Source: a virus
Direction: 5' to 3' (one strand)
Virus record (IMG/VR): IMGVR_UViG_3300045988_150762
Span: 1-28,719 of that record
DNA length: 28,719 nt
Position numbers and translations under genes: made by a program
Shown here: positions 3,649 to 25,321 of the stretch, in pieces
Position numbering within the stretch: position 1 is the stretch's first letter
How the letters are laid out: each line of letters begins with the position of its first letter
Notes under the pieces: generated by a model
What the model was told of the DNA's origin: nothing
The model's input: only the letters and a program-made list of their open reading frames with translations
Databases searched by the model: none

Positions 3649-5354
3649 GAATTATGCAGGAGAGCGACAAACAGAGATTAAGAGAAGCAAAAGAGGCTTG
3701 TATTTGTAGGTTGCGCGGCGTTGACTTTTTGGCGTACGAATATGCAACAAACGAAACAGACCCCCGTATTAGTGAGTATATTCTGGGGTGTATGTCTGAC
3801 ACTGACGGACACAACTTTTTTGAACTTCTTGCGATAGAGCAGTTCTTCAGGAAGTTGGACAAGTACGAGTGGAGGGGGAAAGAGGTGCAGAAGTTCTTTG
3901 CCTTTTACGAGCGTATGAGGTTCAGCGGAGCGAATGGCCGACAGCGTTACAAACTTACTCCTGTACAGTGTTTCCAGTTCGCAAATATTTTCGGGTTTTA
4001 CAGCGACGGAAAACGGCTCACAAAGGACGTACTTCTTTTTGTCCCGCGGAAGTATGGAAAAACAACATCTTGCGCAAGTCTTGCGGTATATGATTTACTT
4101 TTCGGGGACAATAATGCGCAGGCCTACGTTTGCGCCAACGATTTCAATCAAGCGAAGATATGTTTCGATGAAATTAGGCACATTGTAATGGACTTTGACC
4201 CAGGAATGTCAGCCTTTAAAGTCAACCGTGAAAAAATTTTTTGTAAGATGGCAGGGCGCGAGAGTTCCGCAAGCTGCCTGACGAGTTCGGCAAACACAAA
4301 GGACGGACTGAACGCAAGCTTGGTAATATTAGACGAGTACTCACAGGCGAAATCAAGCGAGTTAAGAAACACCCTTATCAGCTCCATGGGCGCAAGGGTG
4401 CAGCCTCTTGTAGTTACAATCACCACAGCAAGCGACAAAATTAACGCCCCTTTTTATGCGGAGTTAGAGGGCGTAAAGCGTGTTTTGCTTGGAGAAGTGG
4501 ACAACGATGCGTTATTTGCTCATTTGTTTATGCCAGACGTTGACGACGAAGAGAGCGACGAGCGTACGTGGCGCAAGGTTCAGCCACATATCGGGGTAAC
4601 TGTACAAAAAGATTATTATTTACAGTACTATAAAAGGGCGCTGACAAATGCCGATGACATGTTGACGTTTCGCACGAAGCTTTTAAACGTGTTCGCCGTA
4701 AATGAGAAGCAGGCATGGTTCAGCCGTGATGAGGCGGAGCGGATATTGAAAGATTTTAAGGTAGAAGATTTTAAAGGCTTGGCTTGTCTGTGCGCTTTTG
4801 ACCTGTCTGTAAAAGATGACTTTTCCGCAGTCTGTTATACTATATATTACAACAAAAATTTTTATTGTGATATTCGCTATTATTTCCCCGAGGGGCAGTT
4901 GGACACGCATCCAAATTCGGAGCTTTACAAAGCGTGGGCGGCTGATGGGTATCTGACTTTGTGCAAAGGTAAATGCATTGACTACAACCAAATTGCAAAC
5001 GACATTCTTAAAGTTGCGAAAACGGTAAAAATAATAGAAATCGGATATGATAACTACAAAGCGGGGGATTTGGCCAGCATTCTGGGCGCCCGAGGCGGTA
5101 AAAGCTATTTGAAAGCATATCCGCAGACATACGGGGCTTTTAATATGCCTGTAGAAGTATTTACAGGCATGGCACTCACAGACCCGCCGCGGGTGTGGTT
5201 GAATAACAACCCTATAAATGTTTTCTGCCTGACTAATGCCATATTGGACGAGGACAGAATGGAGAACAAAAAACCCATTAAGCCCTCGCAGTATAGAAAG
5301 GTAGATGGTGTTATTTGTGTGCTGATGGCATTAGGCATGGCGAAAAAATTATAA
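3645..5354 (+). CDS. terL: Terminase large subunit
   Basis: Walker A PRKYGKTT, Walker B LVILDEY, C-terminal nuclease-like D..S..D segment, ~565 aa. The start is either GTG 3645 or ATG 3654. Confidence 0.95.
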   Translation: MRIMQESDKQRLREAKEACICRLRGVDFLAYEYATNETDPRISEYILGCMSDTDGHNFFELLAIEQFFRKLDKYEWRGKEVQKFFAFYERMRFSGANGRQRYKLTPVQCFQFANIFGFYSDGKRLTKDVLLFVPRKYGKTTSCASLAVYDLLFGDNNAQAYVCANDFNQAKICFDEIRHIVMDFDPGMSAFKVNREKIFCKMAGRESSASCLTSSANTKDGLNASLVILDEYSQAKSSELRNTLISSMGARVQPLVVTITTASDKINAPFYAELEGVKRVLLGEVDNDALFAHLFMPDVDDEESDERTWRKVQPHIGVTVQKDYYLQYYKRALTNADDMLTFRTKLLNVFAVNEKQAWFSRDEAERILKDFKVEDFKGLACLCAFDLSVKDDFSAVCYTIYYNKNFYCDIRYYFPEGQLDTHPNSELYKAWAADGYLTLCKGKCIDYNQIANDILKVAKTVKIIEIGYDNYKAGDLASILGARGGKSYLKAYPQTYGAFNMPVEVFTGMALTDPPRVWLNNNPINVFCLTNAILDEDRMENKKPIKPSQYRKVDGVICVLMALGMAKKL

Positions 5355-5366
5355 ATTTTTTAGTGT

Positions 5367-5401
5367 TTTGTCAGTAAGAAGTAAATAATTTGATATATTT
5401 G
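5367..5401 (+). promoter_or_regulatory. Candidate Bacteroidota promoter for the secreted-protein cassette
   Basis: TTTG (5367-5370) and TATATTTG (5394-5401, matching TAnnTTTG). The 23-nt spacer is longer than the ~19-nt optimum. Confidence 0.4.
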
Positions 5402-5431
5402 CAAAATAAACATTTTAAAACATTGCGTATT

Positions 5432-5836
5432 ATGAAAGAAGTATTGTTAATTTTGTGTTTCTTATTGTTGGGAAGTTCAACAGCTGGGGCGAGGAAGTTT
5501 CACGTTGAAAGTCTTACAACTTATTTGGGCGGCAGCCATTTAATGGATATTACGGCAACGCCGAAGAAGTGGACGGCAGAAGCTAACGAGGAGAACTTCT
5601 CAGTCAGAAATGAAACAGACGAGGTTGTTAATTTTGTATTTCTTGAAGGCAAGACTGAAACGGCGGGGTCTATTGTTCGCAAAGCAACAGAGGTATATTC
5701 AGCGATGAAAAGCACCGTGGAATTAAAGCAACAGACAGACGGAACTCTAATTGTTATTTGCAAGTTTAGCGAGGTTTCAGAATTTATGTATAAGTTAAAG
5801 CCTATAGAATACCATGAAAAACTTTATCATAATTAG
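5432..5836 (+). CDS. Small secreted protein 1 (signal peptide)
   Basis: MKEVLLILCFLLLGSSTAGA N-terminus starting from ATG 5432. Confidence 0.65.
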   Translation: MKEVLLILCFLLLGSSTAGARKFHVESLTTYLGGSHLMDITATPKKWTAEANEENFSVRNETDEVVNFVFLEGKTETAGSIVRKATEVYSAMKSTVELKQQTDGTLIVICKFSEVSEFMYKLKPIEYHEKLYHN

Positions 5837-6251
5837 CTTGCTTTTGTTGGGTGTTGGCACTATGCGAGCGCAAGACATCTACGAGGCCGTTGCCGTAAAG
5901 TTCTCGTTAAATGACAAAGACCGCACGACAGGCAGCGGGGGCAATCTTGTATTTCTTGACAACTGGCAGATACAGTCGGAAAAAGATAAATTTTGCTTTC
6001 TTCATAATGGCTGGAACCGACATTCTATCGAAGTGCTGAAAGACACAAAAAAGAAAGACGGAGATTTTAATATTTTCGTGATGAAGCCCTCATGGGACGC
6101 GTTAACGCCAATTACTGTAAAATTTAATCATGCAAGCTGGAAAATGGTATTATCTTTTCCTATTGGCACCGCTTATTATACGTTTTATTTCTGTCCTGAA
6201 AATTTGGTTGATGAATATAAAGCAGAACTGCAAACAGGTGTAACGAAATGA
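5814..6251 (+). CDS. Small secreted protein 2 (signal peptide)
   Basis: MKNFIIISLLLLGVGTMRA|QD N-terminus. Confidence 0.7.
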   Translation: MKNFIIISLLLLGVGTMRAQDIYEAVAVKFSLNDKDRTTGSGGNLVFLDNWQIQSEKDKFCFLHNGWNRHSIEVLKDTKKKDGDFNIFVMKPSWDALTPITVKFNHASWKMVLSFPIGTAYYTFYFCPENLVDEYKAELQTGVTK

Positions 6252-6754
6252 AAAAACTTTTATCTATATTGTTATATGTGTGCGTGGCTGTATCATTGCA
6301 AGCACAGAAGAAAGTAACCGCAAAACCGCAAAACAAAATAGTATCAGCGGACGAGATAGTGGAGTTCTCTGTCGGTCTTTTGGATAGTAACAAATGGTTC
6401 TTTGAAACGGTAGTCGAAAAGGGGTGGACTGTGACAATGTTAGAAACTCCCAAAAAACAAACGGTTTTCCGACTAAAGAAAGGTGATGCTTTGATATATT
6501 CTTTCGAAGTAAAAAAAGTGTTAGAACATCACGACAATAGCACAATGACAGACTACGAAGAAACCTTTGATTTGGACTGTTACGAAGAACGCTCAAAGAA
6601 AGATGTAGGGGTCTTTTTCGGGGTTAGGAACGGTATTAAAAATATCATGTTTGAACAAGGTGGAGTAATGTACCGTTTTGGCTTCGTCAGTACAGAAAAC
6701 GCTGACGTAGTACGGAAAGCGTATAAAGATTTATATAACAACAACCAGGAATAA
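6248..6754 (+). CDS. Small secreted protein 3 (signal peptide)
   Basis: MKKLLSILLYVCVAVSLQA|QKK N-terminus. ATGA overlap with the upstream gene. Confidence 0.7.
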   Translation: MKKLLSILLYVCVAVSLQAQKKVTAKPQNKIVSADEIVEFSVGLLDSNKWFFETVVEKGWTVTMLETPKKQTVFRLKKGDALIYSFEVKKVLEHHDNSTMTDYEETFDLDCYEERSKKDVGVFFGVRNGIKNIMFEQGGVMYRFGFVSTENADVVRKAYKDLYNNNQE

Positions 6755-6985: not shown

Positions 6986-7029
6986 GTCTCGTTGTGGTAC
7001 CAGTAACACCATTTACGTAGGTGTTATAT

Positions 7030-8244
7030 ATGGGACTGTTTAAACTTACATTCAGGAAGCGCAAGCGAAGAGAAAGCACTGGGGGCGTAACGTCCTCTAT
7101 CGGCAGCACAGTGCAAAATGCAATCGCAGTAAGCGAGGACACGGCAATGAAATTAAGTGCCGTGTACGCTTGTGTTCGCATATTGTCAGACACGGTAGCG
7201 GGTTTGCCTCTTAAATACAAACGGCGCAATGAAGCAACGGGGACTTATGTGGACTTTACCGAAGCGCCTATGTATTACGCATTAACGGTTAGGCCAAACA
7301 GTCGCATGACTGCGTTTTCTTTCTGGAAGTATGTTGTTGTACAGATGTTATTGCGTGGCAACGCCTACGTACTTATACAGCGAGATTATCAAGACGTTTA
7401 CGGCTTTGTCCTACTCAACTCCGAAACGGTTGCGTACAACAAATACAGCGGTACATACATTGTGGCCGATGCGGTTGCAGGGGTGAACGGCACTTTTACA
7501 GGGGATAAGATACTCCACTTCCGCAACATGAGCGAGGACGGAGGCTATACTGGCGTTAGTACAATAAGTTATGCACGCAAACAACTGTGTATAGATGCGA
7601 CGGCCGAAAACGTAGTATTAGACCGTTTCGGCCGTGGCGGCATAGGTAAATTTGTCTATCGTGACAAAGGCGGCGCTTCTGGCTTCGGGGAGTATGCAGA
7701 TGAAGAATTGAACGCTAACGGCAGGGATATAGAACGGCAATTAATAACCCAAAGCGTTGCTGTTGTTCGGGGTGAGGGTGAGCTTACACAAATGCAGATG
7801 ACAAGCGCCGATATGCAGTTTATCGAGCAACAGAAAATAACCGTTAGAGCAATAGGGCGGTTTTTCGGTGTCCACCCCTCACACCTTTACGAAGATACAA
7901 GTAATTACAAGAGCGTCGATGCGGGTAATATTGCTTTGTATAGCGCTGGAGTGAAGCCGATACTAAATAACATTATTGCGGAACTTTCGGCAAAGCTGCT
8001 TGACGAAACTAATTATTTACGCTATCGCTTTGAGTTCGATATAGATAGCTTGTATATAACAGACGCATTAACGGAGGCCGACTACATAACAAAGCAAATA
8101 GCAAACGGCACAATGACAATTAACGAAGCCCGACAGCGTCGAAATCTCCCGCCAGTAGAGGGCGGAGAAAAAACGCTTGTTAGCACGAATATGGCCGATT
8201 TAAACAGTGAAAAAATAACAAAAAATGAACAAAGTAGAAATTAG
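7030..8244 (+). CDS. Portal protein (HK97 family type)
   Basis: ~400 aa, AVYACVRILSDTVAGLPL motif region, located ahead of the protease and capsid genes. Confidence 0.9.
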   Translation: MGLFKLTFRKRKRRESTGGVTSSIGSTVQNAIAVSEDTAMKLSAVYACVRILSDTVAGLPLKYKRRNEATGTYVDFTEAPMYYALTVRPNSRMTAFSFWKYVVVQMLLRGNAYVLIQRDYQDVYGFVLLNSETVAYNKYSGTYIVADAVAGVNGTFTGDKILHFRNMSEDGGYTGVSTISYARKQLCIDATAENVVLDRFGRGGIGKFVYRDKGGASGFGEYADEELNANGRDIERQLITQSVAVVRGEGELTQMQMTSADMQFIEQQKITVRAIGRFFGVHPSHLYEDTSNYKSVDAGNIALYSAGVKPILNNIIAELSAKLLDETNYLRYRFEFDIDSLYITDALTEADYITKQIANGTMTINEARQRRNLPPVEGGEKTLVSTNMADLNSEKITKNEQSRN

Positions 8245-8842
8245 GACTATTGCAGACAAATACCGGCCGAAGTTGCGGGAGGTGAATGGGCAGTCTACGA
8301 GAATTATAGAGGGTTACGCCGCTGTGTTTAATGTGCTGTCGGAGGTTCTTCTGGATTATGACGAAGATAACTATATTTTCCGCGAAGTAATTAGCCCGTC
8401 CGCAATAACGCAAGAGCGGTTAAAAGGGTATGACATTAAAATGACAATGTTTCACAACCGCGAGAAGCTTCTTGCGCGGTCGAGATATGGGGCGGGGTCT
8501 TTAACTCTGTCCGTAGACGATACAGGGCTGAAATTTAGTGCGGAAATGCCTAACACGGATTTAGGTAACGAGGCGCTGGAGATGGTGAAGCGTGGTGACA
8601 TTGTGGGCGCTTCTTTCGCCTACCTTAACAGCAAAGACGGTGTAACGTGGTCGTATGAGGGAGACGTACCAACCCGCACCGTAAATGACATTATAGACAT
8701 ACAAGACGTAACGCTTGCAATAGACCCCGCATTTAACCAGACAAGCGTCAGTTTGCGGGAGCTGTCGAGACCAGCGGAGCGGCCGACGAAAAGGATAAAG
8801 ATAACCCATTATATAAACGATTTAAAAATAGACGAATTATGA
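8225..8842 (+). CDS. Prohead maturation protease (HK97 / S78 type)
   Basis: EGYAAVFN, MFHNRE..LLAR, D.TGL, GDIVGASFAY pattern. Located between portal and capsid. Confidence 0.9.
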   Translation: MNKVEIRTIADKYRPKLREVNGQSTRIIEGYAAVFNVLSEVLLDYDEDNYIFREVISPSAITQERLKGYDIKMTMFHNREKLLARSRYGAGSLTLSVDDTGLKFSAEMPNTDLGNEALEMVKRGDIVGASFAYLNSKDGVTWSYEGDVPTRTVNDIIDIQDVTLAIDPAFNQTSVSLRELSRPAERPTKRIKITHYINDLKIDEL

Positions 8843-9981
8843 CACTTAAAGAACTACTCGCAAGGCGAGACGAGCTAAACAAGAAGCGAGAGGCAACACG
8901 CACCGAGCTTTACAAAATCAACGACAAAGCAAAGGCCGAAAAACGAGAGTTGACACCAGCTGAAGAAATTCAGTTTAAGGCGCTTCAGCGTGAAATGGTT
9001 TGCATTGATGCAGACAGTAAGGCGAACGAGCAGAGCATCACGGAGGTGCAAAACCAAGTTAGAGAAATCAAGAGCAAGAACGCCAAGTTCCGTGAGTTCT
9101 TGCAGAAAGCGGAGCTAAACAAAGAGTATGTTGTAGAGCGTGAGAACACTACTACGGCGTCAGTGCCTGGCGTTATTACGCAAGAAATTATGCCTATAAT
9201 TGAACCACTTGAAAAAGGTTTGATTTACGACAAGGTCGGCGTGACTGTCAGCAGCGGCGTAGTAGGTCAGATACAATGGCCTTTTGTCGGCGCTGTCGAG
9301 GCCGCTATTGCTGGCGAGGCGGTGAAAGGCACAGAAACGGAGGTTGATATATCCAAGGTAAACACTATCCCCGTACGCTTGACGGTTGGCGCATTCGTGT
9401 CTAATCAGGCAATAAGCCAGAGCACGGGGGATTTGGTGGCAGTTGTTACTAACCAGTTTGTTAAGGGCTTGCAAAGAATAATTAACCGTGTAATGTTCAG
9501 CTTTGCAAAGTACAACACGGGCTTCTTTGGCCCATTCGCTGGCGCAAAGAGTTCGGGCACTTTCGCTGGAGCTGTGCCGACTTACGCCGAACTGCTGAAA
9601 ATGAAAGGCGATGTAGCTAAAGAGGGGTGCGACATGAGTGCATTTTGCTATGTCATGAGCGAGTCCATGAAAGCGCAACTCGAAGCAACACCGAGGGCCG
9701 CAGGTTCGGGCGAAATGATATGCGTAGACGGACGTATAGGCGGTTACCCTGTATTCTGCACGCAGTATGTTAACGAGAATGCAAGCAAGGAAACGGACAC
9801 CGTAGAACACGTTGTTGCGGGTGCTTTCAATTATCTCGCACTAAACCAACACGGCGCCCTCCGTCTTACAATAGAGAGCGACGGACAGGCCGACGGCAAG
9901 AAAATCTGGTTAAACTCCGACTGGTCTATGACTTCTCTGTTTAGTCAGGCGTTCTCCAGCTGGAAGTGTAAGGGAGTTTAG
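8839..9981 (+). CDS. Major capsid protein (HK97 fold family) with N-terminal coiled-coil delta domain
   Basis: 380 aa, with a K/E-rich N-terminal ~100 aa followed by a Gly/Ala-rich body. ATGA coupling to the protease gene. Confidence 0.9.
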   Translation: MTLKELLARRDELNKKREATRTELYKINDKAKAEKRELTPAEEIQFKALQREMVCIDADSKANEQSITEVQNQVREIKSKNAKFREFLQKAELNKEYVVERENTTTASVPGVITQEIMPIIEPLEKGLIYDKVGVTVSSGVVGQIQWPFVGAVEAAIAGEAVKGTETEVDISKVNTIPVRLTVGAFVSNQAISQSTGDLVAVVTNQFVKGLQRIINRVMFSFAKYNTGFFGPFAGAKSSGTFAGAVPTYAELLKMKGDVAKEGCDMSAFCYVMSESMKAQLEATPRAAGSGEMICVDGRIGGYPVFCTQYVNENASKETDTVEHVVAGAFNYLALNQHGALRLTIESDGQADGKKIWLNSDWSMTSLFSQAFSSWKCKGV

Positions 9982-10012
9982 TATTTTATTCTTCTTCATA
10001 AACGTAAGTTTC

Positions 10013-10054
10013 GGGGGTGTGCGTGACGCATTAGACGCACGTACGCCCCTTTTT
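10013..10054 (+). terminator. Terminator/attenuator after the capsid gene
   Basis: 11-bp stem GGGGTGTGCGT (10014-10024) / ACGTACGCCCC (10039-10049) with 2 G-U pairs, then TTTTT (10050-10054). Confidence 0.6.
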
Positions 10055-10063
10055 ATAAAAAAC

Positions 10064-11194
10064 ATGAAAATCGTAGATATAGAACTGGTTAGGGCGCATT
10101 GCAATTCATTGCCCGAGGACGATGTACTTCTGGAACATTATACCGAGGTTGCAGAAGAAATGGTTGTAAGTGAGACGCGCAGGACAGACGAAGAACTTAT
10201 CGCGATGGGTGGTGGTAGTTATCCTACACGCATTAAACAGGCCGTGTTGTTGATTGTCGCTCACTTCTATAAAGTGCGTGAGGCTTCAGGCACGATAAAC
10301 GAGATACTTACCCCGTTCGCTTATGCCGCTTGCGTTAAGCCGTTCCGTAAATTTGCGACGGATTGGAAAAATGAGGATAACGATATGTATAACGGGATTA
10401 TTAAGGGAGAGACGGGGCTGTTTGTAAATCTGGACATTAGCAAAATTGATAACAATCGCCAGCAAAGTATCGGGCTTTCTTTGAAAATACAAGACATTTC
10501 TGGGGCTTCGGCAGAGGCTGACGGGCTTGTAACGGCTTACGATGTGCAAAAGGAGTTGGAGAAGAAGCAGAACACGCTTGTGAGCGGCAAGAACCTGAAA
10601 ACGTTCGGCGGTGAGAGTTTGCTCGGGTCGGGCAACATTGATGCTGTGGCAGACGTTAAAGCGAATGGGGTGTCTATTGTAAAAAACGGTGTAGCTGATT
10701 TTGGCACGATAGTTAAAAGTGTTAAGGTTAATGATACAGATGTTCCTAACCCCGATGGAGTTGTAAATCTGGGTTCTGTCGTTAAAAAGATACAAAATAA
10801 CTATGACGACGTTCCTATTGCTGATGATGGAACCGTGAACCTAAGAATTGGCACTCCTATTGGTAGCATCCTTGTTAATGGGAAAGAATACTTTCCACTA
10901 TCTCCTGGAGGGGAAGTAAATCTTGGAACACTTGGGGACTCGTCTTTTATCAGAGTTGAGGAGGGTGTTATACACATAGGAACAGCTTATTACCCGATAC
11001 AATTAGATTGTAATAATTTAGCGCTTGGAACTTCGCCAGGGGCAGTTAATTTAAATGGAGATGTCTATGTCACGGGCGGAGAACTCGCGTTAGGGTATAC
11101 AGGTGGGGCGATAATGCTATTAACAGCTGATGTGCAAGCAAACGTGCTGCGGATTACATGTGGCGCAAAAAAAGCTGAAATACCTTTAAGTTAA
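10064..11194 (+). CDS. Head-tail connector (gp6/gp15-like) domain fused to a ~270-aa repeat-containing fibre-like domain
   Basis: The N-terminal ~105 aa (VRAHCNSLPEDDVLLEHY..AEEMV...IKQAVLLIVAHFY) fit the connector pattern. There is no stop before a C-terminal region carrying four G-x-VNL repeats. Confidence 0.65.
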   Translation: MKIVDIELVRAHCNSLPEDDVLLEHYTEVAEEMVVSETRRTDEELIAMGGGSYPTRIKQAVLLIVAHFYKVREASGTINEILTPFAYAACVKPFRKFATDWKNEDNDMYNGIIKGETGLFVNLDISKIDNNRQQSIGLSLKIQDISGASAEADGLVTAYDVQKELEKKQNTLVSGKNLKTFGGESLLGSGNIDAVADVKANGVSIVKNGVADFGTIVKSVKVNDTDVPNPDGVVNLGSVVKKIQNNYDDVPIADDGTVNLRIGTPIGSILVNGKEYFPLSPGGEVNLGTLGDSSFIRVEEGVIHIGTAYYPIQLDCNNLALGTSPGAVNLNGDVYVTGGELALGYTGGAIMLLTADVQANVLRITCGAKKAEIPLS

Positions 11195-11206
11195 TATAGT
11201 AAAATT

Positions 11207-12088
11207 ATGGTTAGTATAGTAATAACTGCGTACAACGTAGGAGAATATATTGAGCAGTCTGTTAAGAGCGCACTAAGTCAGAGCCTTAAAGATATTGAAG
11301 TTGTTGTTGTGTTGGATAAACCTACAGACAACACGGCCGATGTCGTTAGAACAATAAAAGACGAACGTCTAAAAATCGTTGAAAATGAAAAAAATATTGG
11401 TGCAGGATTAAGCCGTAGAACTGGCATAGCGCATGCAAAGGGCGATTATATTCTTTTGCTTGATGGTGACGACTGGCTGGAACCCTCTTTTGTAGAAAGC
11501 TTGTATAAAAGGGCGAAAAAAGAAAACGCCGACATTGTCAGCGGTGGCGTAACAATAAGAGAAGATAGTGGCTACTATGAAGTGCAATGCGTTGGCGACA
11601 AGGTATGCGAGGGCTACGAAAAAATAACTAAATATTGGGGGCTGAAAACGGTGTTTATGAATAACCGTCTCATTAGGCACGAACTCTTTGGCAAAGTGCC
11701 TTACTGTCATAGGCGATATATTGAGGACACCCCTACAATTATCCCAATGTTGTGGTATGCTAACAAGGTTGTCTATGTTGATGAAATAGGATATAATTAC
11801 CGTGTCAATCCCAAGTCGCTCACCCACACTGCAGACTGGTTCAAAGAATGGGTGTTCAAGGGGTTGTGCTATTGTGATTTGGTTGAGTTCTTCAACGCTC
11901 ACGACCCTGAATTGTATAAGCATTTGGATATAAGACAATATGCCCGCAATATTTTTGCACAGCTGCGGCTGTCCGTTCTCACGGTTGAAACTGTAAGCCA
12001 ATACCCTAATGAGTTTTGCGAACTGATGATGCGCTTGTCTAATCTCGTAAGCGTTGAGAGCGTGAAATATAAACAGATACAACAATGA
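11207..12088 (+). CDS. Family 2 glycosyltransferase (GT-A fold)
   Basis: VSIVITAYNVGEYIEQSVKS...Q, VVVVLDKPTDNT, and a DGDD (DxD) motif followed by W. This is the classic GT2 N-terminal domain. Confidence 0.9.
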   Translation: MVSIVITAYNVGEYIEQSVKSALSQSLKDIEVVVVLDKPTDNTADVVRTIKDERLKIVENEKNIGAGLSRRTGIAHAKGDYILLLDGDDWLEPSFVESLYKRAKKENADIVSGGVTIREDSGYYEVQCVGDKVCEGYEKITKYWGLKTVFMNNRLIRHELFGKVPYCHRRYIEDTPTIIPMLWYANKVVYVDEIGYNYRVNPKSLTHTADWFKEWVFKGLCYCDLVEFFNAHDPELYKHLDIRQYARNIFAQLRLSVLTVETVSQYPNEFCELMMRLSNLVSVESVKYKQIQQ

Positions 12089-12405
12089 TAAGCGCGGGTA
12101 TATTGACGGAGGTCCTAACGCTACAGCGCAAAGCCTATACACGAAACAAGGCGGGCGAACAGGTGCAGGGCTTTGAGGCATTCTGCACGCTTCGGGCAAA
12201 CGTCAAATTTGCAAAAGGTAGCAGGGCGCTGTTGCAGGGCGAAGTGTGGAGGCCTACGACAATAGTAGTAACATCGCGGAACGTGGCGAGCGGTGAAGAT
12301 ACTTGCCGCCTGATATGGAAAAATAGGGCGTATCTTGTCGATAGCGCAAACGCAGACAGGGTAAACGGGACGTTGACCATTACGGCAACGTTGGAAGATA
12401 ATTAA
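12085..12405 (+). CDS. Head closure / head-tail adaptor protein (SPP1 gp16-like)
   Basis: 106 aa, with the pattern ..LTLQR......AGE.V.G.......RANV....G.. typical of the head-tail joining family. ATGA overlap with the GT2 gene. Confidence 0.65.
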   Translation: MISAGILTEVLTLQRKAYTRNKAGEQVQGFEAFCTLRANVKFAKGSRALLQGEVWRPTTIVVTSRNVASGEDTCRLIWKNRAYLVDSANADRVNGTLTITATLEDN

Positions 12406-12409
12406 ATGC

Positions 12410-12919
12410 ATGAACATCGAAATTAACACAGCAAACATCGAAAAGATGTTGGGAGGTCTTAAACGTTCGGAGCTTACACCAGCTTTCAAAGTGGCTTTTC
12501 GCAAAGCAGCAGGCGTGTTGGCTTCTGCTGTGCGTAATAGGGTCAGGCAAGACTATCCAGGCGGGCGACGTGCTAATAGCGGAGTATTAAGGGGTGTACA
12601 GTATGGCCCACTATATAAGGACGTTAAAATGACGGTGTACAAGTCTGGCGAGGGTGCAAACGTTAGCCTTTTTTCTCGTAGCAAGCCTAATCGGTGGTGC
12701 GTGCTATATTGGCTTAACGATGGAGCGGACAGAACAGGAAGCAAGGCGGCCTACACACGCAAGACGGGCGGCCATGCGCCAGCAGACAGGGGGGCGTTAC
12801 CGAAGCGCGACTTCTTTGCGCAAGCCGTGGGGGGTGCTAAGTCACGAGCGGAGCAGACTCTTGTTAAAGAACTCCCCGACGAAATCGTGAAACAAATCAG
12901 TAAAAATAAAAACTCTTAA
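12410..12919 (+). CDS. HK97 gp10-like neck/tail-completion protein
   Basis: Size and position, plus a C-terminal LPKRDFFAQAV segment resembling that family. Confidence 0.5.
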   Translation: MNIEINTANIEKMLGGLKRSELTPAFKVAFRKAAGVLASAVRNRVRQDYPGGRRANSGVLRGVQYGPLYKDVKMTVYKSGEGANVSLFSRSKPNRWCVLYWLNDGADRTGSKAAYTRKTGGHAPADRGALPKRDFFAQAVGGAKSRAEQTLVKELPDEIVKQISKNKNS

Positions 12920-12931
12920 ACATTTAAAATT

Positions 12932-13423
12932 ATGGCAGAAACACAGAAAACACAGGCAACAAAAGTTAGAGGCAAAGACTTAATGCTGTTTCTTACTGAT
13001 GGCGAGACTACCAAGGCAATAGCGCTTGTTACAAACAGTACTATCAGTATCACGGCAAACACTAACGAGTACAAAACTAAGGACGACACCGAGGACAGTG
13101 CGCCTGAAGTTGAGTCCATATCATGGGAGGCTACCTCTGAAAGTATGTACTCAGTAGAAAAAGGCTTAGACGCACAGTACACGGCCGACAGCCTTATGAA
13201 AATCATGTTGGCAAAGAAACTTATAGGAGTTGCACTTGCGCAGACTTCTGCGGCTGGCACACATATAAGCGTACCCGCAGGCGGCTGGACAGAAAAAGAC
13301 GGGGCATTCCTTATTAGTGGCAAAGCGTTTATCACGTCGTTGGAAGTTACTGCAACTAATGGGGAGTACGCAAGCGTATCTATCACGCTGACAGGCAAGG
13401 GGGCTCTAAATACGTTAGGTTAA
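12932..13423 (+). CDS. Major tail (tube) protein, TP901-1/phi13-like
   Basis: VRGKDLMLFL start, ISWEATSES middle, GKAFITSLEV...ASVSITLTGKGAL end. Lies upstream of the chaperone and tape measure genes. Confidence 0.7.
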   Translation: MAETQKTQATKVRGKDLMLFLTDGETTKAIALVTNSTISITANTNEYKTKDDTEDSAPEVESISWEATSESMYSVEKGLDAQYTADSLMKIMLAKKLIGVALAQTSAAGTHISVPAGGWTEKDGAFLISGKAFITSLEVTATNGEYASVSITLTGKGALNTLG

Positions 13424-13800
13424 TGGAAGTACATGCGTATATCTATACAACCGTGTCGCAAGCAGTTCCGCAGGAGGTGGCAGAAAGGGTCTACCCTATC
13501 TGCGCCCCTGGCGGGACAGACTTGCCATTTATCACATATCATGTAACAGAGCAGAGGGCAGACGGAACCAAGGACACGCGAGAAAGTGACGTTACTGTAG
13601 AAGTGGCGGTTGTCGGTAAGAACCTCATGGCCGCCCATGAGCTGGCCGATGTCATTACGGCAGCTTTGGAAGCGGACGAGGACGAAGCATCACAAAACGG
13701 GCTTGACTTCCCCACGTGGCAAAATACGGCCGAGCTGTACGATATCAATGTAGACGGGTATGTCGTAACCACGGCGGTAAAATATAAACGACTAAGATAA
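13423..13800 (+). CDS. Tail terminator/completion-like protein (DUF3168-like pattern)
   Basis: ERVYPICAPGGTDLPFITYHV segment typical of that family. 125 aa. Confidence 0.45.
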   Translation: MEVHAYIYTTVSQAVPQEVAERVYPICAPGGTDLPFITYHVTEQRADGTKDTRESDVTVEVAVVGKNLMAAHELADVITAALEADEDEASQNGLDFPTWQNTAELYDINVDGYVVTTAVKYKRLR

Positions 13801-13806
13801 AACACG

Positions 13807-14121
13807 ATGAAGATAACATTTAACAAACAAGAGCTTGAATTTCGGTACAACTGGGGGGCGATATACACATACGAAAAAATAACAGACGAGCCGCTGAACG
13901 TAGACAAGAACATGAGCCGACATGTATTGTTATATTCTATTTTGTTGTTCAACAATCAGGGCGTTTTTAGTCTGACGTGGAACGAGTTCATTGCTATCAT
14001 CGAAGATTACTCCGAGCTGAAAGTGTTGACAGACGCACTTGTGAAAGAATTGGAACTCAAAGCGCAGGAGCGCGAAAAGGCAGAGCAGGGAGAGAAAGAA
14101 AAAACAAAAAAAAAGGACTGA
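13807..14121 (+). CDS. Tail assembly chaperone (G-like, 0-frame product)
   Basis: Located directly upstream of the tape measure gene. Acidic C-terminus ending in a slippery A-run. Confidence 0.75.
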   Translation: MKITFNKQELEFRYNWGAIYTYEKITDEPLNVDKNMSRHVLLYSILLFNNQGVFSLTWNEFIAIIEDYSELKVLTDALVKELELKAQEREKAEQGEKEKTKKKD

Positions 14122-14447
14122 CGGCGACAGAGGTGTACAAGCTTGTATGCGGTGAATTTGGGGTTAGCCCTGATTATTTCTTACGCTCCATGGGCTTCGC
14201 GGAGGCTCACGATTTTATAGAGGGCGCACAAAACAGGGCGCGAGATATATGGCAGTGTACGCGAATGCTTATGTATACCAACGTGGCCACCGTTGGCGGA
14301 GCAAAGGGGAAAACCCCAGAGGACATTATGTCTCTACCCTGGGATAAAGGCGACACGCAAGAACAGAAGCTAACGGAAGAACGATTGCAAGAAATTAGGG
14401 CAAGGGCGCAAGCCATGGCCGGCAAACTGAACAAAAAAGATGAGTGA
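13807..14447 (+). CDS. Tail assembly chaperone, -1 frameshift extension product (GT-like)
   Basis: The -1 frame is open from the slip site to 14447 (…KKKGLTATEVYKLV…). ORF 13977..14447 is in exactly the -1 phase relative to 13807. Confidence 0.7.
14109..14115 (+). promoter_or_regulatory. -1 programmed ribosomal frameshift heptamer A_AAA_AAG
   Basis: 0-frame codons are aaa(14110-12) aag(14113-15), 6 nt before the TGA at 14119-21. The downstream frame continues in -1. Confidence 0.75.
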
Positions 14448-16545
14448 CGCTATAGTAAGACTAAGACTTGACGCGGGTAATTATTCGCAAACCCTTAAAA
14501 GTGCCACGCGGGAGCTACAGAACACAGTACGGCAAGTTCGCGAAATGGGGGCTACTTTTGCCGTTACCGACAAAGAAGAAACCAACTTTGCTCAATCTTT
14601 TGCAAAGTTGGCGACTTCGGCAACTTCAACGAAACAGCAGCTAAGGGAAATTACCGCCGCAATAAACGACCTTAAAACGGCTTACGCTGCCATGACAGGG
14701 GAAGAACGTAATTCTCCATTCGGGAAAGGCCTTAAAGACAGTATAGACCAGCTAATAGAGCGTGCAGGAATACTCCGTGACACCATGGCGGACACTACGC
14801 AAGCGATTAATAACGCCGCATCAGATACACGAGGGTTTGACCAGCTTATAGGGGCGGCTAATGTTATGACAGGGGCTTACGGTGTGCTTACCGCTGGTGC
14901 AGAACTCTTTGGTATGTCAACATTGTCTAACAGTGAAGCGATGCGGAAGTTGCAGACCGCCATTGCCCTCTGTTCCAGCGCCCAGACTTTGCAAAATGCA
15001 TTGCAAAAGCAGGGGGCAGTTTATCAGGGCGTTTTGGCGGTGCAGGCACGGGCAAGGGCGCAAGCGGAGGCTCTCGCAACAAGTTCGACAAAAGCGGCTA
15101 CGGTAGCGCAGAAAGCATTTAATCTTGTCGCAAAAGCAAATCCTTATGCGTTGTTGGCAACGGCTATTGTTGCTGTAGGTACGGCCCTGTATGCATTTAC
15201 GCAAAAAAGCAAAGAGGCAAGCAACGCTTCAGGGGGGCTGTCTGAAAAAATAAAGGCACAACAAGCGCTAATAAAAGGTACGGCAGACGCTGCAAGCGGG
15301 AACATTACAGAGTTTGAAAGGCTTAGTATAGAGTGGGCTAACTTGCGCACGGAAGCCCAGCAAAAACAATGGATACACGACAATCAAAGCGCGTTTGAAC
15401 GCTTAGGGCTTAGCGTAAATAGCATTTCTGATGCTTTTGATGTGTTTGTCAGGAATAAAGGCAAATATATTCAGGCAATGACCGAAATTGCCCGCGCTTC
15501 CGCGTATATGGATTTGGCAAAGGCGCAATTTAAAAAAGGCATAGAAAACTCATTAAAAACAACGAAAGCAGCAACAGCAAAAGCAGGGGATAATGTCTAC
15601 ACGCTGTCAGAGGACGAGCAAGCGTTTGTTTTTGGCAACAAAAAATATCATAACACGTATAAACGATACGGGGGCTCTTTTTCTACGCTTACTCCAGCTG
15701 GTGCGCAGGCGTTGTTTAAGCGTAGAAGTAGGAATGCTTTGCGAGCAAAAGACAAACAAACTGAAGATATTAATGCGGTGGGTGAATATTATATCAAAAA
15801 GGCACTCGACAGTGGTAATAAAGCAGAAGAACTTGGGCTAAAGAGCGGGGGAACGTCAAAAACACAAAGGCGTCGTTCTGGTAGTGGGCGCACAGTAGCG
15901 GCCGCAGTGGCAAAGCCGTTGACAGCGGAAGAAAAGGCGGAACTTTGGCGCAAGGCTAACGATGAGATGCAGAAAGGCACGCACGGTCTTTTTAATTCGT
16001 CCCTTAAAGATGCTAACGCTGCTTATAACGAGAACGTGAAGCGCCTATCAGGCAACGGAGCGGAATATTATGCATTTAGAAAGCTTAACGAGCTAACCCC
16101 GACCGAGCTAACCCCGTTTAAGTTCCAGGATAACCAAGGCTACAAGCAGAGCGAAGATTTTAAGCAGCTAAAATTCACGGAGAGCATAACAAAGCTACGT
16201 TCGGGGCTGGACGAGATGTCTAACGGGGTCAGCGCTGGCAGTTCGTTGGTAGATGGTATTAGCAACATTATAACAACGTTAGGCGGGAACTCGGAAGCAC
16301 TAAAAACTCTTACGACAGCTTTGGGCATTGTTTCCGCTGTTATACAGGTCGCTACGACAGCAATAGAGGTCGGGGCAATATTGGGGCTTATTCCGCTGTC
16401 TAATCGTTTTGAGGGCAACGCAGGAGGCTTGCAGGGGCTTATTGCAGATGGCACGATTGGCGGCGGCCAAACACTAACGGCAACAATAAAGGGGGAAGAT
16501 ATATATTTAAGTAATCGAAATTATATAAGGCGAACAGGAAAATAG
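14440..16545 (+). CDS. Tape measure protein
   Basis: 701 aa, Ala/Gln-rich helical sequence with hydrophobic segments, following the G/GT chaperone. Confidence 0.9.
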   Translation: MSDAIVRLRLDAGNYSQTLKSATRELQNTVRQVREMGATFAVTDKEETNFAQSFAKLATSATSTKQQLREITAAINDLKTAYAAMTGEERNSPFGKGLKDSIDQLIERAGILRDTMADTTQAINNAASDTRGFDQLIGAANVMTGAYGVLTAGAELFGMSTLSNSEAMRKLQTAIALCSSAQTLQNALQKQGAVYQGVLAVQARARAQAEALATSSTKAATVAQKAFNLVAKANPYALLATAIVAVGTALYAFTQKSKEASNASGGLSEKIKAQQALIKGTADAASGNITEFERLSIEWANLRTEAQQKQWIHDNQSAFERLGLSVNSISDAFDVFVRNKGKYIQAMTEIARASAYMDLAKAQFKKGIENSLKTTKAATAKAGDNVYTLSEDEQAFVFGNKKYHNTYKRYGGSFSTLTPAGAQALFKRRSRNALRAKDKQTEDINAVGEYYIKKALDSGNKAEELGLKSGGTSKTQRRRSGSGRTVAAAVAKPLTAEEKAELWRKANDEMQKGTHGLFNSSLKDANAAYNENVKRLSGNGAEYYAFRKLNELTPTELTPFKFQDNQGYKQSEDFKQLKFTESITKLRSGLDEMSNGVSAGSSLVDGISNIITTLGGNSEALKTLTTALGIVSAVIQVATTAIEVGAILGLIPLSNRFEGNAGGLQGLIADGTIGGGQTLTATIKGEDIYLSNRNYIRRTGK

Positions 16546-16551
16546 AACGGC

Positions 16552-18810
16552 ATGGCACAAGACACAAGTAACGTTAAATATCTTGCGAAGTTTGCAGGAG
16601 CGGACGGGGCGCAGAGGGAGTTTCAAATAATAGACAACTCTGGCGAATGGGTAACGCAACAGATAGTTCTTACTGCTCTGTCGCTGGACGAGGATAACAG
16701 CGAAGAAATCTTTGAACCTATGCGCATTTGGTCTGGGAGCGTGTCTTTCTATTCTGACGGTATAACCTTAGAGGACTTGACGCCTCAAACATCGCAGAGC
16801 CTTATAGTTAAAATCGTTCGGGGTGAAGAAACGGAATTTATAGGGTATCTGCAGGGCGAGTCGCTATCGCAGTCATACGGCCAGCACGGTGAGGTATTAT
16901 CTTTTACGGTTGCCAGTCGTCTGTCTGTCGGGTCGGGACTTGAATACAAAGAGGAGCTAAGCTGTTCGGCGGACAATATACTAACATTAGGGCAACTGCT
17001 GTATGATTGTCTAAAGCAATGCGGGGCAGAAGATACTGATGCTATATATTTGTGTGATAGCGTGCTTCTTACTGCGGAGGCGGGTAGCCCGTGGAAGTTG
17101 TTCGCCGCTGTTGTAGATAGGTATAGATTTTACAAAGAGAATAACGATAAGACTATAAACGAGGACTACACGAAAGACGATGTTTACACTATAGTAGCAG
17201 AGATATTGCGACCGTTCGGCCTGATGATGCACGAACAGGGAGCGAACTTTGTTATTACTCACACAAATATAAGCACCTCAACAACGTATCGCATGTTGTT
17301 TATTTCGCAACTGAAAGACATCACAGAAGCGAATACTACAGGCGAAACAAATACCCCTATGACTGTCCACTTCGTTGACGGGTCTGTACTGTATGGCACA
17401 GACCAGAGAGCGGACTACTATCGAGGCTCTAAGAAGTTCCGTGTTACTCTTAATCTGGGCTTGCAGGAGGTTGACGTGTTTAAAAATTTGTTGGATTTTG
17501 AACTATATACGCGCAACACTTCGGCCTATCGTTTTTGGGGCGAGAGAAACGACACTGAAGCCCCTGTAGTCTCTATATCATATTTTGACCCAATTAACAC
17601 AAAATATAGCAATGTGCGCTGTTACCCGTACAGGCTACAGGAGGACGCAGGCTCAAGCGAGGGTGTTCGCTTTGTTCAGGCAGAGGACTTATCTACGTGG
17701 ACAGACGACCAGCGGCCAGGGTGTACCCCGATTGCATTCCGCGGAGTTCTGAACCCACGCAAACCTCGCACACCTTTTGAACCGACACCAGAGGACACAG
17801 ACTGGCAGAAAGGGTTCATTGTTAACCCCTCACAATATCAGCGCCCAGCTTCGTCACACAAGAACGAAGTCTATGTTGCCGGGTTGCCGTTAATATCAGT
17901 AACAACGCAAAAGGGCTTCCTCTTATATGAGGGTAAGTTTGTTTTGTCTATGTCTGTTGCTCACCACAGGTATCCAACAGACGGAGGAGCAAAGCAGACG
18001 AACCCCAGTAAGGACGCTTTTTTTCTTGGGCAGAGGTTTTCTATAGGAACTATGTATTATGGAAACGCTGACGACGGGTTAGGGTCTGTGACCTGGGGGC
18101 CAACTAATAACATAATAGCTTTGTATATTACAGGAGGGAGCGGTGGCGATGCACAACTGGAAGATGATGTAATGCTCTCGCACCCCGACACGCCTAAGTG
18201 GTTTTTCCCTGGCGTTTTTGCGCTTCCGTACCATGCGGGAGAACGCAAGCTAATGCGCGGAAAAATAAATTGGGGGCTATATCTTGGGGGGCCTTTTCTC
18301 AATCCTGACGACCCTAACAACCCAGAAGCCCCAAAAAGTATCGTTTTCCCATTAAAAACGGCAGGCGTAATTCTGTCGGGGCTGTCTTTGTCTTATGACG
18401 GCCAAAGGGATAAACCTTTTCTTGACACAAAGAATAAAGACACACGAGACTACTACAAAAACAGCGACAACGGCTTCGACGGAGAAGAAAAGCGTGTAAC
18501 TACGTTGTTCGGGTCATACGCCGAGGGGGGCGGCAGTGCGCTGTCTAATATGTTTTACAACAATGAGCCTATCACAACAATATATAACGGAGTTAGCGAC
18601 ATCATAATTGAAGAAGCCTTAGTTCAGCAGCTTAAAAAATATTATGACAGAATTTGCGAAATTAGGACAATTACAATAAAAGACGAAGCTACGAAGTATT
18701 ATGCGGGAGATATTATTGCGATGGAGGACGGGGAATTCCTTACACTTGCCGTGTCGGTTGACTACCTGAACGGCGTTCGCAAGCTTACAGTAACGAAAAT
18801 CATAACATAA
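16552..18810 (+). CDS. Tail tip / baseplate protein (Dit/Tal-like role, putative receptor binding)
   Basis: 752 aa and the only large gene between the tape measure and the lysis region. No specific motif recognised. Confidence 0.55.
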   Translation: MAQDTSNVKYLAKFAGADGAQREFQIIDNSGEWVTQQIVLTALSLDEDNSEEIFEPMRIWSGSVSFYSDGITLEDLTPQTSQSLIVKIVRGEETEFIGYLQGESLSQSYGQHGEVLSFTVASRLSVGSGLEYKEELSCSADNILTLGQLLYDCLKQCGAEDTDAIYLCDSVLLTAEAGSPWKLFAAVVDRYRFYKENNDKTINEDYTKDDVYTIVAEILRPFGLMMHEQGANFVITHTNISTSTTYRMLFISQLKDITEANTTGETNTPMTVHFVDGSVLYGTDQRADYYRGSKKFRVTLNLGLQEVDVFKNLLDFELYTRNTSAYRFWGERNDTEAPVVSISYFDPINTKYSNVRCYPYRLQEDAGSSEGVRFVQAEDLSTWTDDQRPGCTPIAFRGVLNPRKPRTPFEPTPEDTDWQKGFIVNPSQYQRPASSHKNEVYVAGLPLISVTTQKGFLLYEGKFVLSMSVAHHRYPTDGGAKQTNPSKDAFFLGQRFSIGTMYYGNADDGLGSVTWGPTNNIIALYITGGSGGDAQLEDDVMLSHPDTPKWFFPGVFALPYHAGERKLMRGKINWGLYLGGPFLNPDDPNNPEAPKSIVFPLKTAGVILSGLSLSYDGQRDKPFLDTKNKDTRDYYKNSDNGFDGEEKRVTTLFGSYAEGGGSALSNMFYNNEPITTIYNGVSDIIIEEALVQQLKKYYDRICEIRTITIKDEATKYYAGDIIAMEDGEFLTLAVSVDYLNGVRKLTVTKIIT

Positions 18811-18814
18811 CAAC

Positions 18815-19069
18815 ATGAAAAAAATAGACAATACAATAGACCGCACATTAAAACGGTTTGCGGAGATACCAAAAGACAAGTATATGCACGTATGTATATC
18901 AAGCGCACTTACAGCAGTGTTCGGGCTGTTTCTCCCGTTTGTTCCGCTGCTTGCGGTAATGACGATTATCTACCTGTACAAGGGGGTAAGAGACGCACAG
19001 GGCAGAGGCTGTGCAGAATGGGGAGACCTGATTGCGGATTATATAGGCTTTTTGATTGGTGTAATATAA
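18815..19069 (+). CDS. Small membrane protein (84 aa)
   Basis: Hydrophobic spans ISSALTAVFGLFLPFVPLLAVMTIIYLY and LIADYIGFLIGVI. Confidence 0.5.
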   Translation: MKKIDNTIDRTLKRFAEIPKDKYMHVCISSALTAVFGLFLPFVPLLAVMTIIYLYKGVRDAQGRGCAEWGDLIADYIGFLIGVI

Positions 19070-19080
19070 AATAAATTGTT

Positions 19081-19497
19081 ATGTATGTAAAAGGACGTGA
19101 TTTGTTATTGTATCGGTACGTTGGCAATCAATATGTACCAATCGCAAGTTGTCAGGCGTGCAGCTTGCAAATAAAAAACGATGCCGTGGAGCGGCTGCCC
19201 GAGGGAGAATGGGCGTGGCGTGAATATATCCCAACAAAAAACGCGTGGGGTATTAGTGCAAGCGGCTTGATTGACCTTACAACATACGGTTTGTTTGAAC
19301 TGCTGAATACTCGTGTTGTTATAGTGGTGTCGCATGTGTTACGGGCAGCGGACGACACGGCAAGCGTAGACCCCGCAAAGGCGTATTACCGCAAAGGCAC
19401 GGCAATAATAACAAGTTTGTCGGAGGAGAGCAGCTACGACGGCAAAGCGTCTTGGAATGTACAACTACAAGGTACGGGAAAACTAACGACAATTTAA
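19081..19497 (+). CDS. Second tail-tube-like protein (paralogue of 12932..13423)
   Basis: Alignable by eye to the tube protein: VKGRDLLLY vs VRGKDLMLF, NAWGISASG vs ISWEATSES, KGTAIITSLSEE...NVQLQGTGKL vs GKAFITSLEV...SITLTGKGAL. Confidence 0.55.
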   Translation: MYVKGRDLLLYRYVGNQYVPIASCQACSLQIKNDAVERLPEGEWAWREYIPTKNAWGISASGLIDLTTYGLFELLNTRVVIVVSHVLRAADDTASVDPAKAYYRKGTAIITSLSEESSYDGKASWNVQLQGTGKLTTI

Positions 19498-19522
19498 ATA
19501 CAAATTAAATACAAAAATAATT

Positions 19523-25289: not shown

Positions 25290-25321
25290 TGAACAAGAAA
25301 CAAAAAAGTAAACACTATGAA
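25290..25321 (+). repeat. Direct repeat copy 1 flanking the hexapeptide-repeat gene
   Basis: TGAACAAGAAACAAAAAAGTAAACACTATGAA, matching 26006-26041 apart from a 5-nt indel. Confidence 0.85.

Follow-up and report, generated by a model that had tools for sequence, protein, structure and literature searches.

The window analysed here is a stretch of 28,719 nucleotides of viral DNA (IMG/VR record IMGVR_UViG_3300045988_150762, positions 1 to 28,719), which carries at 11207-12088 a gene for a family-2 glycosyltransferase (GT) lodged between a head-tail adaptor gene with a long fibre-like extension and a head-closure gene. Comparison with related phages suggests that this GT is an intact, soluble enzyme, and that its gene is exchanged together with the end of the fibre as a single cassette. 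We tentatively propose, with a confidence that falls a little short of an even chance, that, late in infection, the fibre or another virion protein receives sugar from this enzyme while still in the cytoplasm. The locus, all of it on the + strand, reads as follows:

10064..10390, +, head-tail adaptor core (Ad1, gp6/gp15-like), the N-terminal ~110 residues of a fusion protein
10391..11194, +, fibre-like extension that continues the adaptor reading frame at its C-terminal end
11153..11191, +, coding region of the last 13 fibre residues (C-terminal tail), ITCGAKKAEIPLS
11168..11218, +, junction conserved at the nucleotide level: last fibre codons, TAA, 12-nucleotide spacer TATAGTAAAATT and GT start
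11207..12088, +, soluble GT-A / family-2 glycosyltransferase of 293 residues, ATG start, Pfam PF00535
12085..12405, +, head-closure protein (Hc1), Pfam Phage_HCP E=9.4e-13, phrog_25

The enzyme and the proposed fibre cassette

The open reading frame (ORF) of the GT matches Pfam Glycos_transf_2 (PF00535) with E=7.7e-34 and 117.5 bits (cut-off 23.3), residues 3-162 covering profile positions 1-165 of 168, and it is also hit by Glyco_tranf_2_3 and Glyco_tranf_2_2. The motifs IVITAYNVGEYIEQ, LDKPTDNT and LLDGDDW are all present, in agreement with the original prediction, which had called a clear family-2 enzyme from its ITAYN, DKPTDNT and DGDD motifs. The DxD motif (D86-G-D88-D89) is encoded at 11462-11473 and an E173-D174 pair at 11723-11728; in an alignment of 39 family members, with identities down to 47%, residues D86, G87, D88, D89, R70, E173 and D174 are invariant, as are ~50 other positions, the C-terminal half included. 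The AlphaFold2 (AF2) model of the protein is of high quality, with a predicted local distance difference test score (pLDDT) of 93.8 and a predicted template modelling score (pTM) of 0.91, and a Foldseek search with it returned many solved GT2 enzymes at a probability of 1.00. The top folds were CgT (5hea), TarS, TarP and RmlT, with template modelling scores (TM-scores) of ~0.7 over the full length, and the nearest predicted viral structure was a 277-residue protein of the crAss-like phage cr130_1, annotated as 'GtrB' (TM-score 0.80-0.84). When compared to its homologues in sibling phages, the gene has a ratio of non-synonymous to synonymous substitution rates (dN/dS) of 0.10-0.17, and the capsid, portal and tube genes give values in this range too; towards a more distant homologue that is 83% identical (locus L111), dN is 0.11 and dS is saturated. 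The intact conserved residues and the low dN/dS therefore point to a catalytically intact family-2 enzyme under purifying selection, a working protein and not an inert passenger.

The protein has an isoelectric point (pI) of 5.9 and a maximum 19-residue Kyte-Doolittle mean of 0.91, and thus no transmembrane segment. The family as a whole is acidic, with a median pI of 5.4 and a range of 4.7-6.3. For a soluble acidic GT, a protein would be a more plausible acceptor than a membrane component, DNA or a polyanion.

The upstream ORF ends at 11194, 12 nucleotides before the GT start codon at 11207, and the GT stop codon (12086-12088) overlaps the head-closure ATG at 12085 in an ATGA arrangement (-4 nucleotides). 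Both features, already pointed out in the original prediction, can be read directly in the DNA, and the families of both flanking genes were confirmed. Gene-to-gene gaps range from -20 to +82 nucleotides across 7030-20597, no Bacteroides-type promoter (TAnnTTTG) occurs within ~850 nucleotides upstream of the GT (the nearest + strand motifs lie at 10348 and then at 7647), and no terminator-like site flanks the gene on the + strand. Because neither a promoter nor a terminator flanks the GT in this tightly packed gene block, the simplest reading is that it would be transcribed late together with the virion genes. The earlier claim that it "must" be co-expressed late was worded too strongly, but the lack of flanking signals and the close packing speak in its favour. 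The junction holds TACCTTTA at 11181, which lies one mismatch away from a Bacteroides -7 box and lacks the conserved final G, and through which a promoter may reside inside the 3' end of the fibre.

The N-terminal ~110-120 residues of the upstream protein correspond to a head-tail adaptor (phrog_40 Ad1, E=1.3e-14; Pfam Phage_connect_1, E=3.8e-5; TIGR01560, E=2e-8). As all adaptor homologues begin with MKIVDIEL, translation probably starts at ATG 10064, giving 376 residues, and not at GTG 10019. The extension that follows consists of a conserved linker (KKQxTLVSGKNxKTFGGESLLGSG), a mosaic variable part from ~10640 to ~11150 and a conserved tail, and contains repeats of the VNLG type. It has no Pfam or PDB match, sequence searches of the PDB returned no useful match for the adaptor-fibre protein, the L004 fibre, the c2 fibre or the c3 protein, and the AF2 model of the fusion is of low confidence (pLDDT 34); its assignment as a putative fibre rests on sequence repeats, composition and mosaic behaviour.

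Five sibling contigs from other samples (L115-L119) share 95-99% protein identity with the window for portal, protease, capsid, GT, head-closure and tube, and all keep the order capsid, adaptor-fibre, GT, head-closure. Within this lineage the GT is 96-97% identical and the adaptor core 92-94%, but the fibre extension is only 90%, 52% or 39% identical, with large indels, and its dS reaches ~1 versus 0.1-0.3 for the flanks. The final 13 fibre residues (ITCGxKKAEIPLS) are invariant in the sibling lineage, and the tail follows the pattern I-(T/S)-C-x-x-K-x-A-E-I-x-L-S over all variants, residues I379, C381, K384, A386, E387, I388, L390 and S391 (numbered from 10019) being invariant in eight sequences that include a 413-residue fibre of locus L111. 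Since the ITCG codons differ synonymously, these data point to selection on the tail peptide. In L111, the stand-alone 413-residue fibre with the same tail is followed by the same 12-nucleotide spacer and then by the GT, in a different gene neighbourhood. The junction at 11168-11218 (~50 nucleotides) is near-identical in the window, three siblings and L111, and the GT of L111 differs at ~1/3 of positions directly after it. This short element is a candidate for translation initiation or coupling, for a recombination joint, or for a cis element. In a further sibling, L120 (sample SRR29133571), the DNA follows the window with 93-95% identity as far as window position 10642 and then continues into a different fibre end, after which comes an ORF that is neither the GT nor the head-closure gene.

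The constant tail and junction beside a swapped fibre, their recurrence in L111 and the alternative end in L120 thus suggest that the distal fibre end and the GT are exchanged as a unit, a cassette that in this lineage has been spliced onto the adaptor. The slot held by the GT would then be the usual place of a fibre-specific accessory gene. A constant GT beside a fibre whose variable part is swapped argues for the glycosylation reading proposed above. A megablast of window positions 7000-20000 against deposited phages and tblastn searches of phages with the fibre extension and with the L004 fibre-like protein gave no match, and scans of IMG/VR and JGI metagenomes with the adaptor-fibre protein (P0130) found no relatives, the sibling lineage being seen only in Logan and ENA assemblies.

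The family and its gene neighbourhoods

A database search yielded more than 400 full-length homologues of the GT, of 280-320 residues, almost confined to Bacteroidales phages, crAss-like ones included. Family-level matches, defined by a score above 300 bits against the family profile (the best score below this group being 197), were gathered at 80 loci, each with ±6-10 kb of DNA around the homologue. Their neighbourhoods are of ~18 kinds, found among others in the window lineage, in further HK97-like siphoviruses (L004), in IMG/VR phages of 50-65 kb, in crAss-like phages (portal phrog_6547, Crass_capsid) and on contigs of 150-160 kb. The position of the gene varies among them. In L004, whose GT is 66% identical, no gene separates the adaptor gene from the head-closure gene, and the GT is found in the tail region; in L111 it stands at the end of a tail-fibre-like cluster; in IMG/VR phages of 50-65 kb it stands between two fibre-like genes and ahead of a PI-PLC-X-like gene, a holin and an endolysin; and some family GTs directly precede lysis genes. 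Placement in the head-tail joining region thus seems peculiar to the window lineage. The original prediction had taken this location as pointing to modification of virion proteins, an argument that is overstated, because the placement is not conserved in homologues (L111, L004, pre-lysis and crAss-like loci) and is hence not diagnostic. Integrases are rarely found within 10 kb of family GTs. When one genome for each of 185,579 species was searched, no family-level homologue lay in a bacterial polysaccharide locus: the matches were on phage-like contigs or in islets of 2-4 genes. The possibility, raised at the outset, that homologues occur only in host polysaccharide loci is therefore not borne out.

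What recurs around the GT is a fibre. Over 75 family loci, two or more fibre-type repeat motifs (xLxxGxGL / NLGTG kind) occur in 31 of 73 immediate upstream proteins (42%), versus 0.45% of proteins more than two genes away, and this pattern holds in the window, the IMG/VR group, the crAss-like group, L037, L060 and the chromosomal islets. By a classification made partly by eye, a fibre-like gene lies no more than two genes away from the GT in at least 14 of the 18 context types. One fibre family, with the N-terminus M..INKIKVG...Y.I.P, is shared by five context types; throughout the DNA examined its members occur only at a distance of one or two genes from the GT. An ORF of 81-113 residues in the islets represents one of these contexts. 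Among 114 neighbours from 22 representative loci of the other context types, the Pfam matches were to domains of fibres, spikes and lysis proteins, namely Adeno_shaft, Peptidase_S74, Beta_helix, Hexapep, Gp5_trimer_C, Phage_tail_C, holin and amidases. An adenovirus-type triple beta-spiral shaft was considered for the small chromosomal ORFs and the crAss-like fibres, but only one of the 114 neighbours hits Adeno_shaft and none of ten individually tested candidates does, which leaves a resemblance only.

Two phages encode a second sugar enzyme near the GT. In the crAss-like locus L001, the stop codon of a gene at 7168-8001 overlaps the GT start, and its product matches the polypeptide N-acetylgalactosaminyltransferase (GalNAc-transferase) 6s22 in the PDB (E=7.9e-6) and nothing else significantly, the alignment spanning the DxH and Gal/GalNAc-T motifs. 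A homologue of it (290 bits) lies in L113 (10067-11020) and L114 (9139-10092), three genes after the GT and past fibre-like and beta-helix genes. Polypeptide GalNAc-transferases have no known role other than the initiation of O-glycans on proteins, and no clue to a protein target of the pathway is stronger than these GT27-like partners.

Further sugar genes were observed on a contig of 152 kb (L003, 4125-9946), where a GT11-domain protein, a protein with GTP_EFTU and PAPS_reduct domains, an APS kinase, the family GT and a second GT2 stand in a row, which suggests a phage-encoded route to a sulfated glycan.

Besides phages, ~27 metagenome-assembled genomes of Bacteroidales (one per species, mostly Bacteroidaceae) carry the GT in a chromosomal islet of 2-4 genes. 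The islets adjoin nagB and lie among GH43, pheT, yebC, gcvP and peptidase genes, with no phage or virion genes within 10 kb, and they still hold small fibre-like ORFs beside the GT. Their genes (L054-L089; for example L054 9406-10861 and L061 9040-10819) comprise an ORF of 93 residues, the ORF of 81-113 residues, which begins with the fibre-like M..INKIRIG..Y.I.P, the GT, and sometimes a PI-PLC-X-like gene of 197 residues; all of these ORFs are intact at ~50% identity. A protein of 188-210 residues that begins with MILGTHNS is encoded right after the GT or two genes on in the IMG/VR phage group, in L056 and in some islets (L013 2004-2567, L056 10825-11421, L061 10226-10819). It has no PDB sequence match, and the Pfam PI-PLC-X match of the pooled scan (E=2.2e-6, one neighbour) probably belongs to this family. 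In cr130_1 (L121 5955-6977), the gene upstream of a distantly related GT has several in-frame stops under the standard bacterial code, consistent with stop-codon reassignment, and its translation, stops aside, looks coiled-coil and fibre-like.

Candidate acceptors and related systems

According to the reading we tentatively favour, the GT would be an active, soluble, cytoplasmic GT-A enzyme, encoded by the downstream half of a horizontally mobile cassette of fibre end and GT. In the window lineage this cassette would sit between adaptor core and head-closure gene, so that the fibre is fused to the adaptor and projects from the neck in up to twelve copies. Transcribed and translated with the late structural genes, the enzyme would use a nucleotide sugar donor in a DxD/Mn-dependent reaction and O-glycosylate the new fibre, or another virion protein, before or during assembly. 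A conserved part of the fibre, either the linker or the invariant C-terminal tail, could be the recognition or acceptor region, leaving the middle of the fibre free to vary. The family and fold of the enzyme, its intact catalytic residues, the purifying selection, the packing of the operon, the link with fibre genes and the mosaic nature of the fibre are seen in the data themselves; that the gene is expressed late, which acceptor and which donor sugar the enzyme uses, and whether the virion is affected are inferred. The fibre-like extension of the connector had been named as the obvious substrate in the original prediction; the tail/GT junction in L111, the flanking fibre genes and the two GalNAc-transferase-like partners lend this comparative support, and the ~27 genomes with GT islets devoid of virion genes do not.

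These islets are one of several points that weigh against the proposal, as they contain no virion genes and the enzyme therefore also acts outside a virion context. The case for a glycosylated virion protein is a comparative one, built on the linkage to fibre genes and on the GT27-like partners. Similarity to GT2 enzymes tells nothing firm about the acceptor, the nearest curated NCBIfam models are polysaccharide GTs, and the window phage has no initiating GT of its own. The family loci behind the fibre-linkage counts are not phylogenetically independent, and the classification of fibres is partly motif-based and partly by eye. A C-terminal tail, 'L.IT..GK....L', that the fibres preceding the GT in L006, L037 and L060 seemed by eye to share was dropped when a leave-out hidden Markov model (built on the window lineage and L111) gave E>1, L004 alone being weakly matched (E=0.008). 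The L120 contig stops 79 nucleotides past the fibre gene, so that its GT could lie further downstream. Known seroconversion genes also adjoin receptor-binding genes: gtrABC of P22 adjoins the tailspike gene, and oac of Sf6 adjoins gene 14.

Two known systems act on proteins in a comparable way. The GTs of the mycobacteriophages Che8, Corndog and Myrna glycosylate capsid and tail-tube proteins, according to the account of this work given in a later article (Freeman et al. 2023, Cell Host Microbe, as cited in PMC12363180). There, phage GTs expressed with the structural genes modify virion proteins in the cytoplasm, which is the mechanism proposed here; the hosts, however, are Actinomycetota and not Bacteroidota, the known substrates are capsid and tail tube instead of a linked fibre, and the likeness is one of proposed mechanism. 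The second is CgT, the C-terminal GT2 domain of dGT1, from the glycosylation of the serine-rich-repeat glycoprotein Fap1 (PDB 5hea). It is both the best sequence match of the GT (E=2.7e-19, residues 1-208) and its best fold (TM-score 0.70-0.74 over the full length, including the helical C-terminal part), and is likewise a soluble cytoplasmic enzyme working on a protein-linked glycan. Yet the identity is only 21%, and CgT extends an existing glycan in a multi-enzyme streptococcal pathway of which there is no counterpart in the window. Glycosylation of virions by virus-encoded enzymes is known to date only from mycobacteriophages and, among eukaryotic viruses, from giant viruses, and our literature search found no report either of a fibre-linked GT cassette or of virion glycosylation in Bacteroidales or crAss-like phages.

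A first alternative, already raised in the original prediction and retained here as unlikely but worth serious attention, is that the GT modifies a host surface glycan. It would add a sugar to a lipid-linked precursor of capsule, lipopolysaccharide or O-glycan on the cytoplasmic side, and the altered surface would block superinfection or the re-adsorption of progeny to debris, receptor-binding and receptor-modifying genes being exchanged together. The polysaccharide GTs among the nearest NCBIfam models, the chromosomal copies outside any prophage in the ~27 Bacteroidales genomes and the temperate nature of the window phage (integrase at 21637-22839) fit this idea, and so does the PHROG label 'GtrB-like O-antigen conversion' on the N-terminal residues of the GT (2-124). 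A GtrB carries C-terminal transmembrane helices and works together with GtrA and GtrC. The likeness of our GT to it lies in the GT2 catalytic domain and in the PHROG label on the N-terminal 115-125 residues; in contrast to GtrB, the GT has no transmembrane segment, no partner genes and a position inside a late operon. No gene for a GtrA flippase or of the GtrC type was found among the window ORFs scanned (a few ORFs below 90 residues fell outside the Pfam scan), and a membrane enzyme of the GtrB type was ruled out by the absence of both transmembrane segment and partner genes.

The other close folds, prophage-borne TarP as well as TarS and RmlT (6h1j, 5tz8, 8bz4), belong to enzymes that decorate cell-wall polymers, and thus also favour a surface acceptor. 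They share with our GT a GT-A domain followed by a C-terminal helical region (TM-score 0.6-0.7; 0.59-0.71 for TarP, E ~1e-15), and TarP is a phage-borne soluble GT2 that alters what phages and antibodies see. TarP differs in that its acceptor is poly-ribitol-phosphate and it is expressed from a prophage, and an acidic protein such as ours would be unexpected for a polyanion binder. Bacteroidota are not known as producers of wall teichoic acid or poly-ribitol-phosphate. Capsule modification has further been proposed for the GT of Gratiaviridae, which lies between the portal and capsid genes (Benler et al. 2021, PMC8008677). Like ours, that GT is embedded in the structural module of a Bacteroides-infecting gut phage, so such a placement has been noticed before; unlike ours, it comes with a HipA-like kinase and an AAA ATPase and without a fibre, and the likeness is one of gene placement.

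Against a host glycan as acceptor stand the acidic, soluble character of a protein without transmembrane helices or GtrA/GtrC-type partners, the lack of a lysogen promoter for a gene embedded in a late operon, and the absence of family-level homologues from polysaccharide loci. The polypeptide-GalNAc-transferase-like partners in two phages do not fit it, nor does the constancy of the GT while the presumed receptor-binding part of the fibre is swapped, which is unlike what matched specificities would produce. The family is also present in crAss-like phages. These are not known to lysogenise, so seroconversion of a lysogen would not apply there.

Somewhat further from the evidence, and in our view improbable, is an action of the GT on some other phage or host protein of the cytoplasm or on a small molecule, its linkage to fibres reflecting no more than the usual insertion site of accessory genes at fibre ends. 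Accessory genes do often insert at module boundaries, a second such site exists in the window at 5390-6754, the acceptor cannot be read from a GT2 sequence, and the chromosomal islets show use of the GT outside the virion context. However, the fibre tail-spacer-GT junction is conserved at the nucleotide level across unrelated contexts, the INKIKVG fibre family occurs only beside the GT, islets included, and the positional enrichment of fibre repeats is strong (42% versus 0.45%).

Very improbable is glycosylation of phage DNA, at bases of the 5-hydroxymethylcytosine (5hmC) or 5-hydroxymethyluracil (5hmU) type, as a protection against restriction. GT-A-fold phage GTs acting on 5hmC indeed have TarP as their best PDB match and carry R...DxD...ED motifs, and their genes adjoin those of 5mYOX/TET, thymidylate-synthase-like or methyltransferase proteins (bioRxiv 10.1101/2023.12.21.572611). 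Our GT shares the fold, TarP as a near solved structure and the generic R/DxD/ED motifs, but no base-modification gene lies near the family in the stretches scanned: there is no TET/5mYOX, thymidylate-synthase-like or C5-methyltransferase gene in the 28.7-kb window, no TET/JBP, thymidylate-synthase-like or C5-methyltransferase gene among the 114 neighbours of the 22 loci (which include one N6/N4 methylase), and no base-modification gene with the chromosomal copies. The protein is moreover acidic, and its neighbours are fibre and lysis genes, not replication genes. Finally, an inert, recently captured passenger is scarcely conceivable: the dip in GC content (0.39-0.43 over 10800-11800 versus 0.45-0.51 in the flanks) is compatible with a foreign origin, but the gene is as constrained as the structural genes, keeps its catalytic residues across all 39 aligned members, persists in five more sibling contigs from different samples and belongs to a family of more than 400 full-length members.

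Extending the fibre-glycosylation reading beyond the window, we put forward, as a possibility we regard as rather doubtful, that several unrelated morphotypes of gut Bacteroidales phages, crAss-like ones included, sugar-coat their fibres by means of an exchanged fibre and GT cassette, some with a polypeptide-GalNAc-transferase-like initiator that would amount to mucin-type O-glycosylation of virions, and that a reduced cassette of mini-fibre genes and GT has been domesticated in the chromosomes of a Bacteroidaceae clade. If this were true for abundant gut phages, host binding, adherence to mucus, survival of proteases and immune recognition could all change, and the compact, portable pair of fibre and enzyme could serve to engineer glycosylated phage particles. 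If the host receptor is masked instead, the GT would represent a new type of soluble, late-expressed, phage-borne surface-modifying enzyme in Bacteroidales. The window lends itself to a clean test, with one enzyme, one adjacent candidate substrate and natural siblings that differ only in the fibre.

Further features of the window

The window phage has the gene set of an HK97-like siphovirus, and its tyrosine integrase marks it as temperate. No tRNA gene was found in the window. The host would be a member of the Bacteroidales, judging from the hosts of relatives, lipoprotein-like signal sequences and the style of promoter motifs. The remaining genes of the phage are arranged as follows:

from 3087, +, small terminase, in the phage gene block
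3645-5354, +, large terminase
5390-6754, +, three small lipoprotein-like ORFs, between large terminase and portal
7030-8244, +, portal
between portal and major capsid protein, +, prohead protease
8839-9981, +, major capsid protein
downstream of head-closure, tail tube, tail completion, chaperones, tape measure and a distal tail protein of 752 residues
thereafter, lysis cassette with amidase, then tyrosine integrase at 21637-22839

The three ORFs at 5390-6754 lie in tandem and have lipoprotein-like signal sequences; ahead of them stands a Bacteroides-type -7 box, TATATTTG, at 5394, with a TTTG 27 nucleotides upstream. In the siblings L117 and L120 a single gene of 256-258 residues takes their place. 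This is a second mosaic accessory-gene site, and it is possibly expressed on its own.

The tape measure gene (14440-16545) is a second fast-changing structural gene, with only 70-76% identity among siblings that share 95-99% in the neighbouring genes. Directly after the distal tail protein, 18815-19069 encodes a protein of 84 residues with a strongly hydrophobic stretch, probably two membrane helices, and no family match; homologues of it adjoin the GT in L111, L004/L005 and L001. In the early region beyond the integrase, 25317-26024 encodes a protein of 235 residues with beta-solenoid repeats of the YdcK type (Pfam E=1.1e-19; phrog_7964 E=9e-93).

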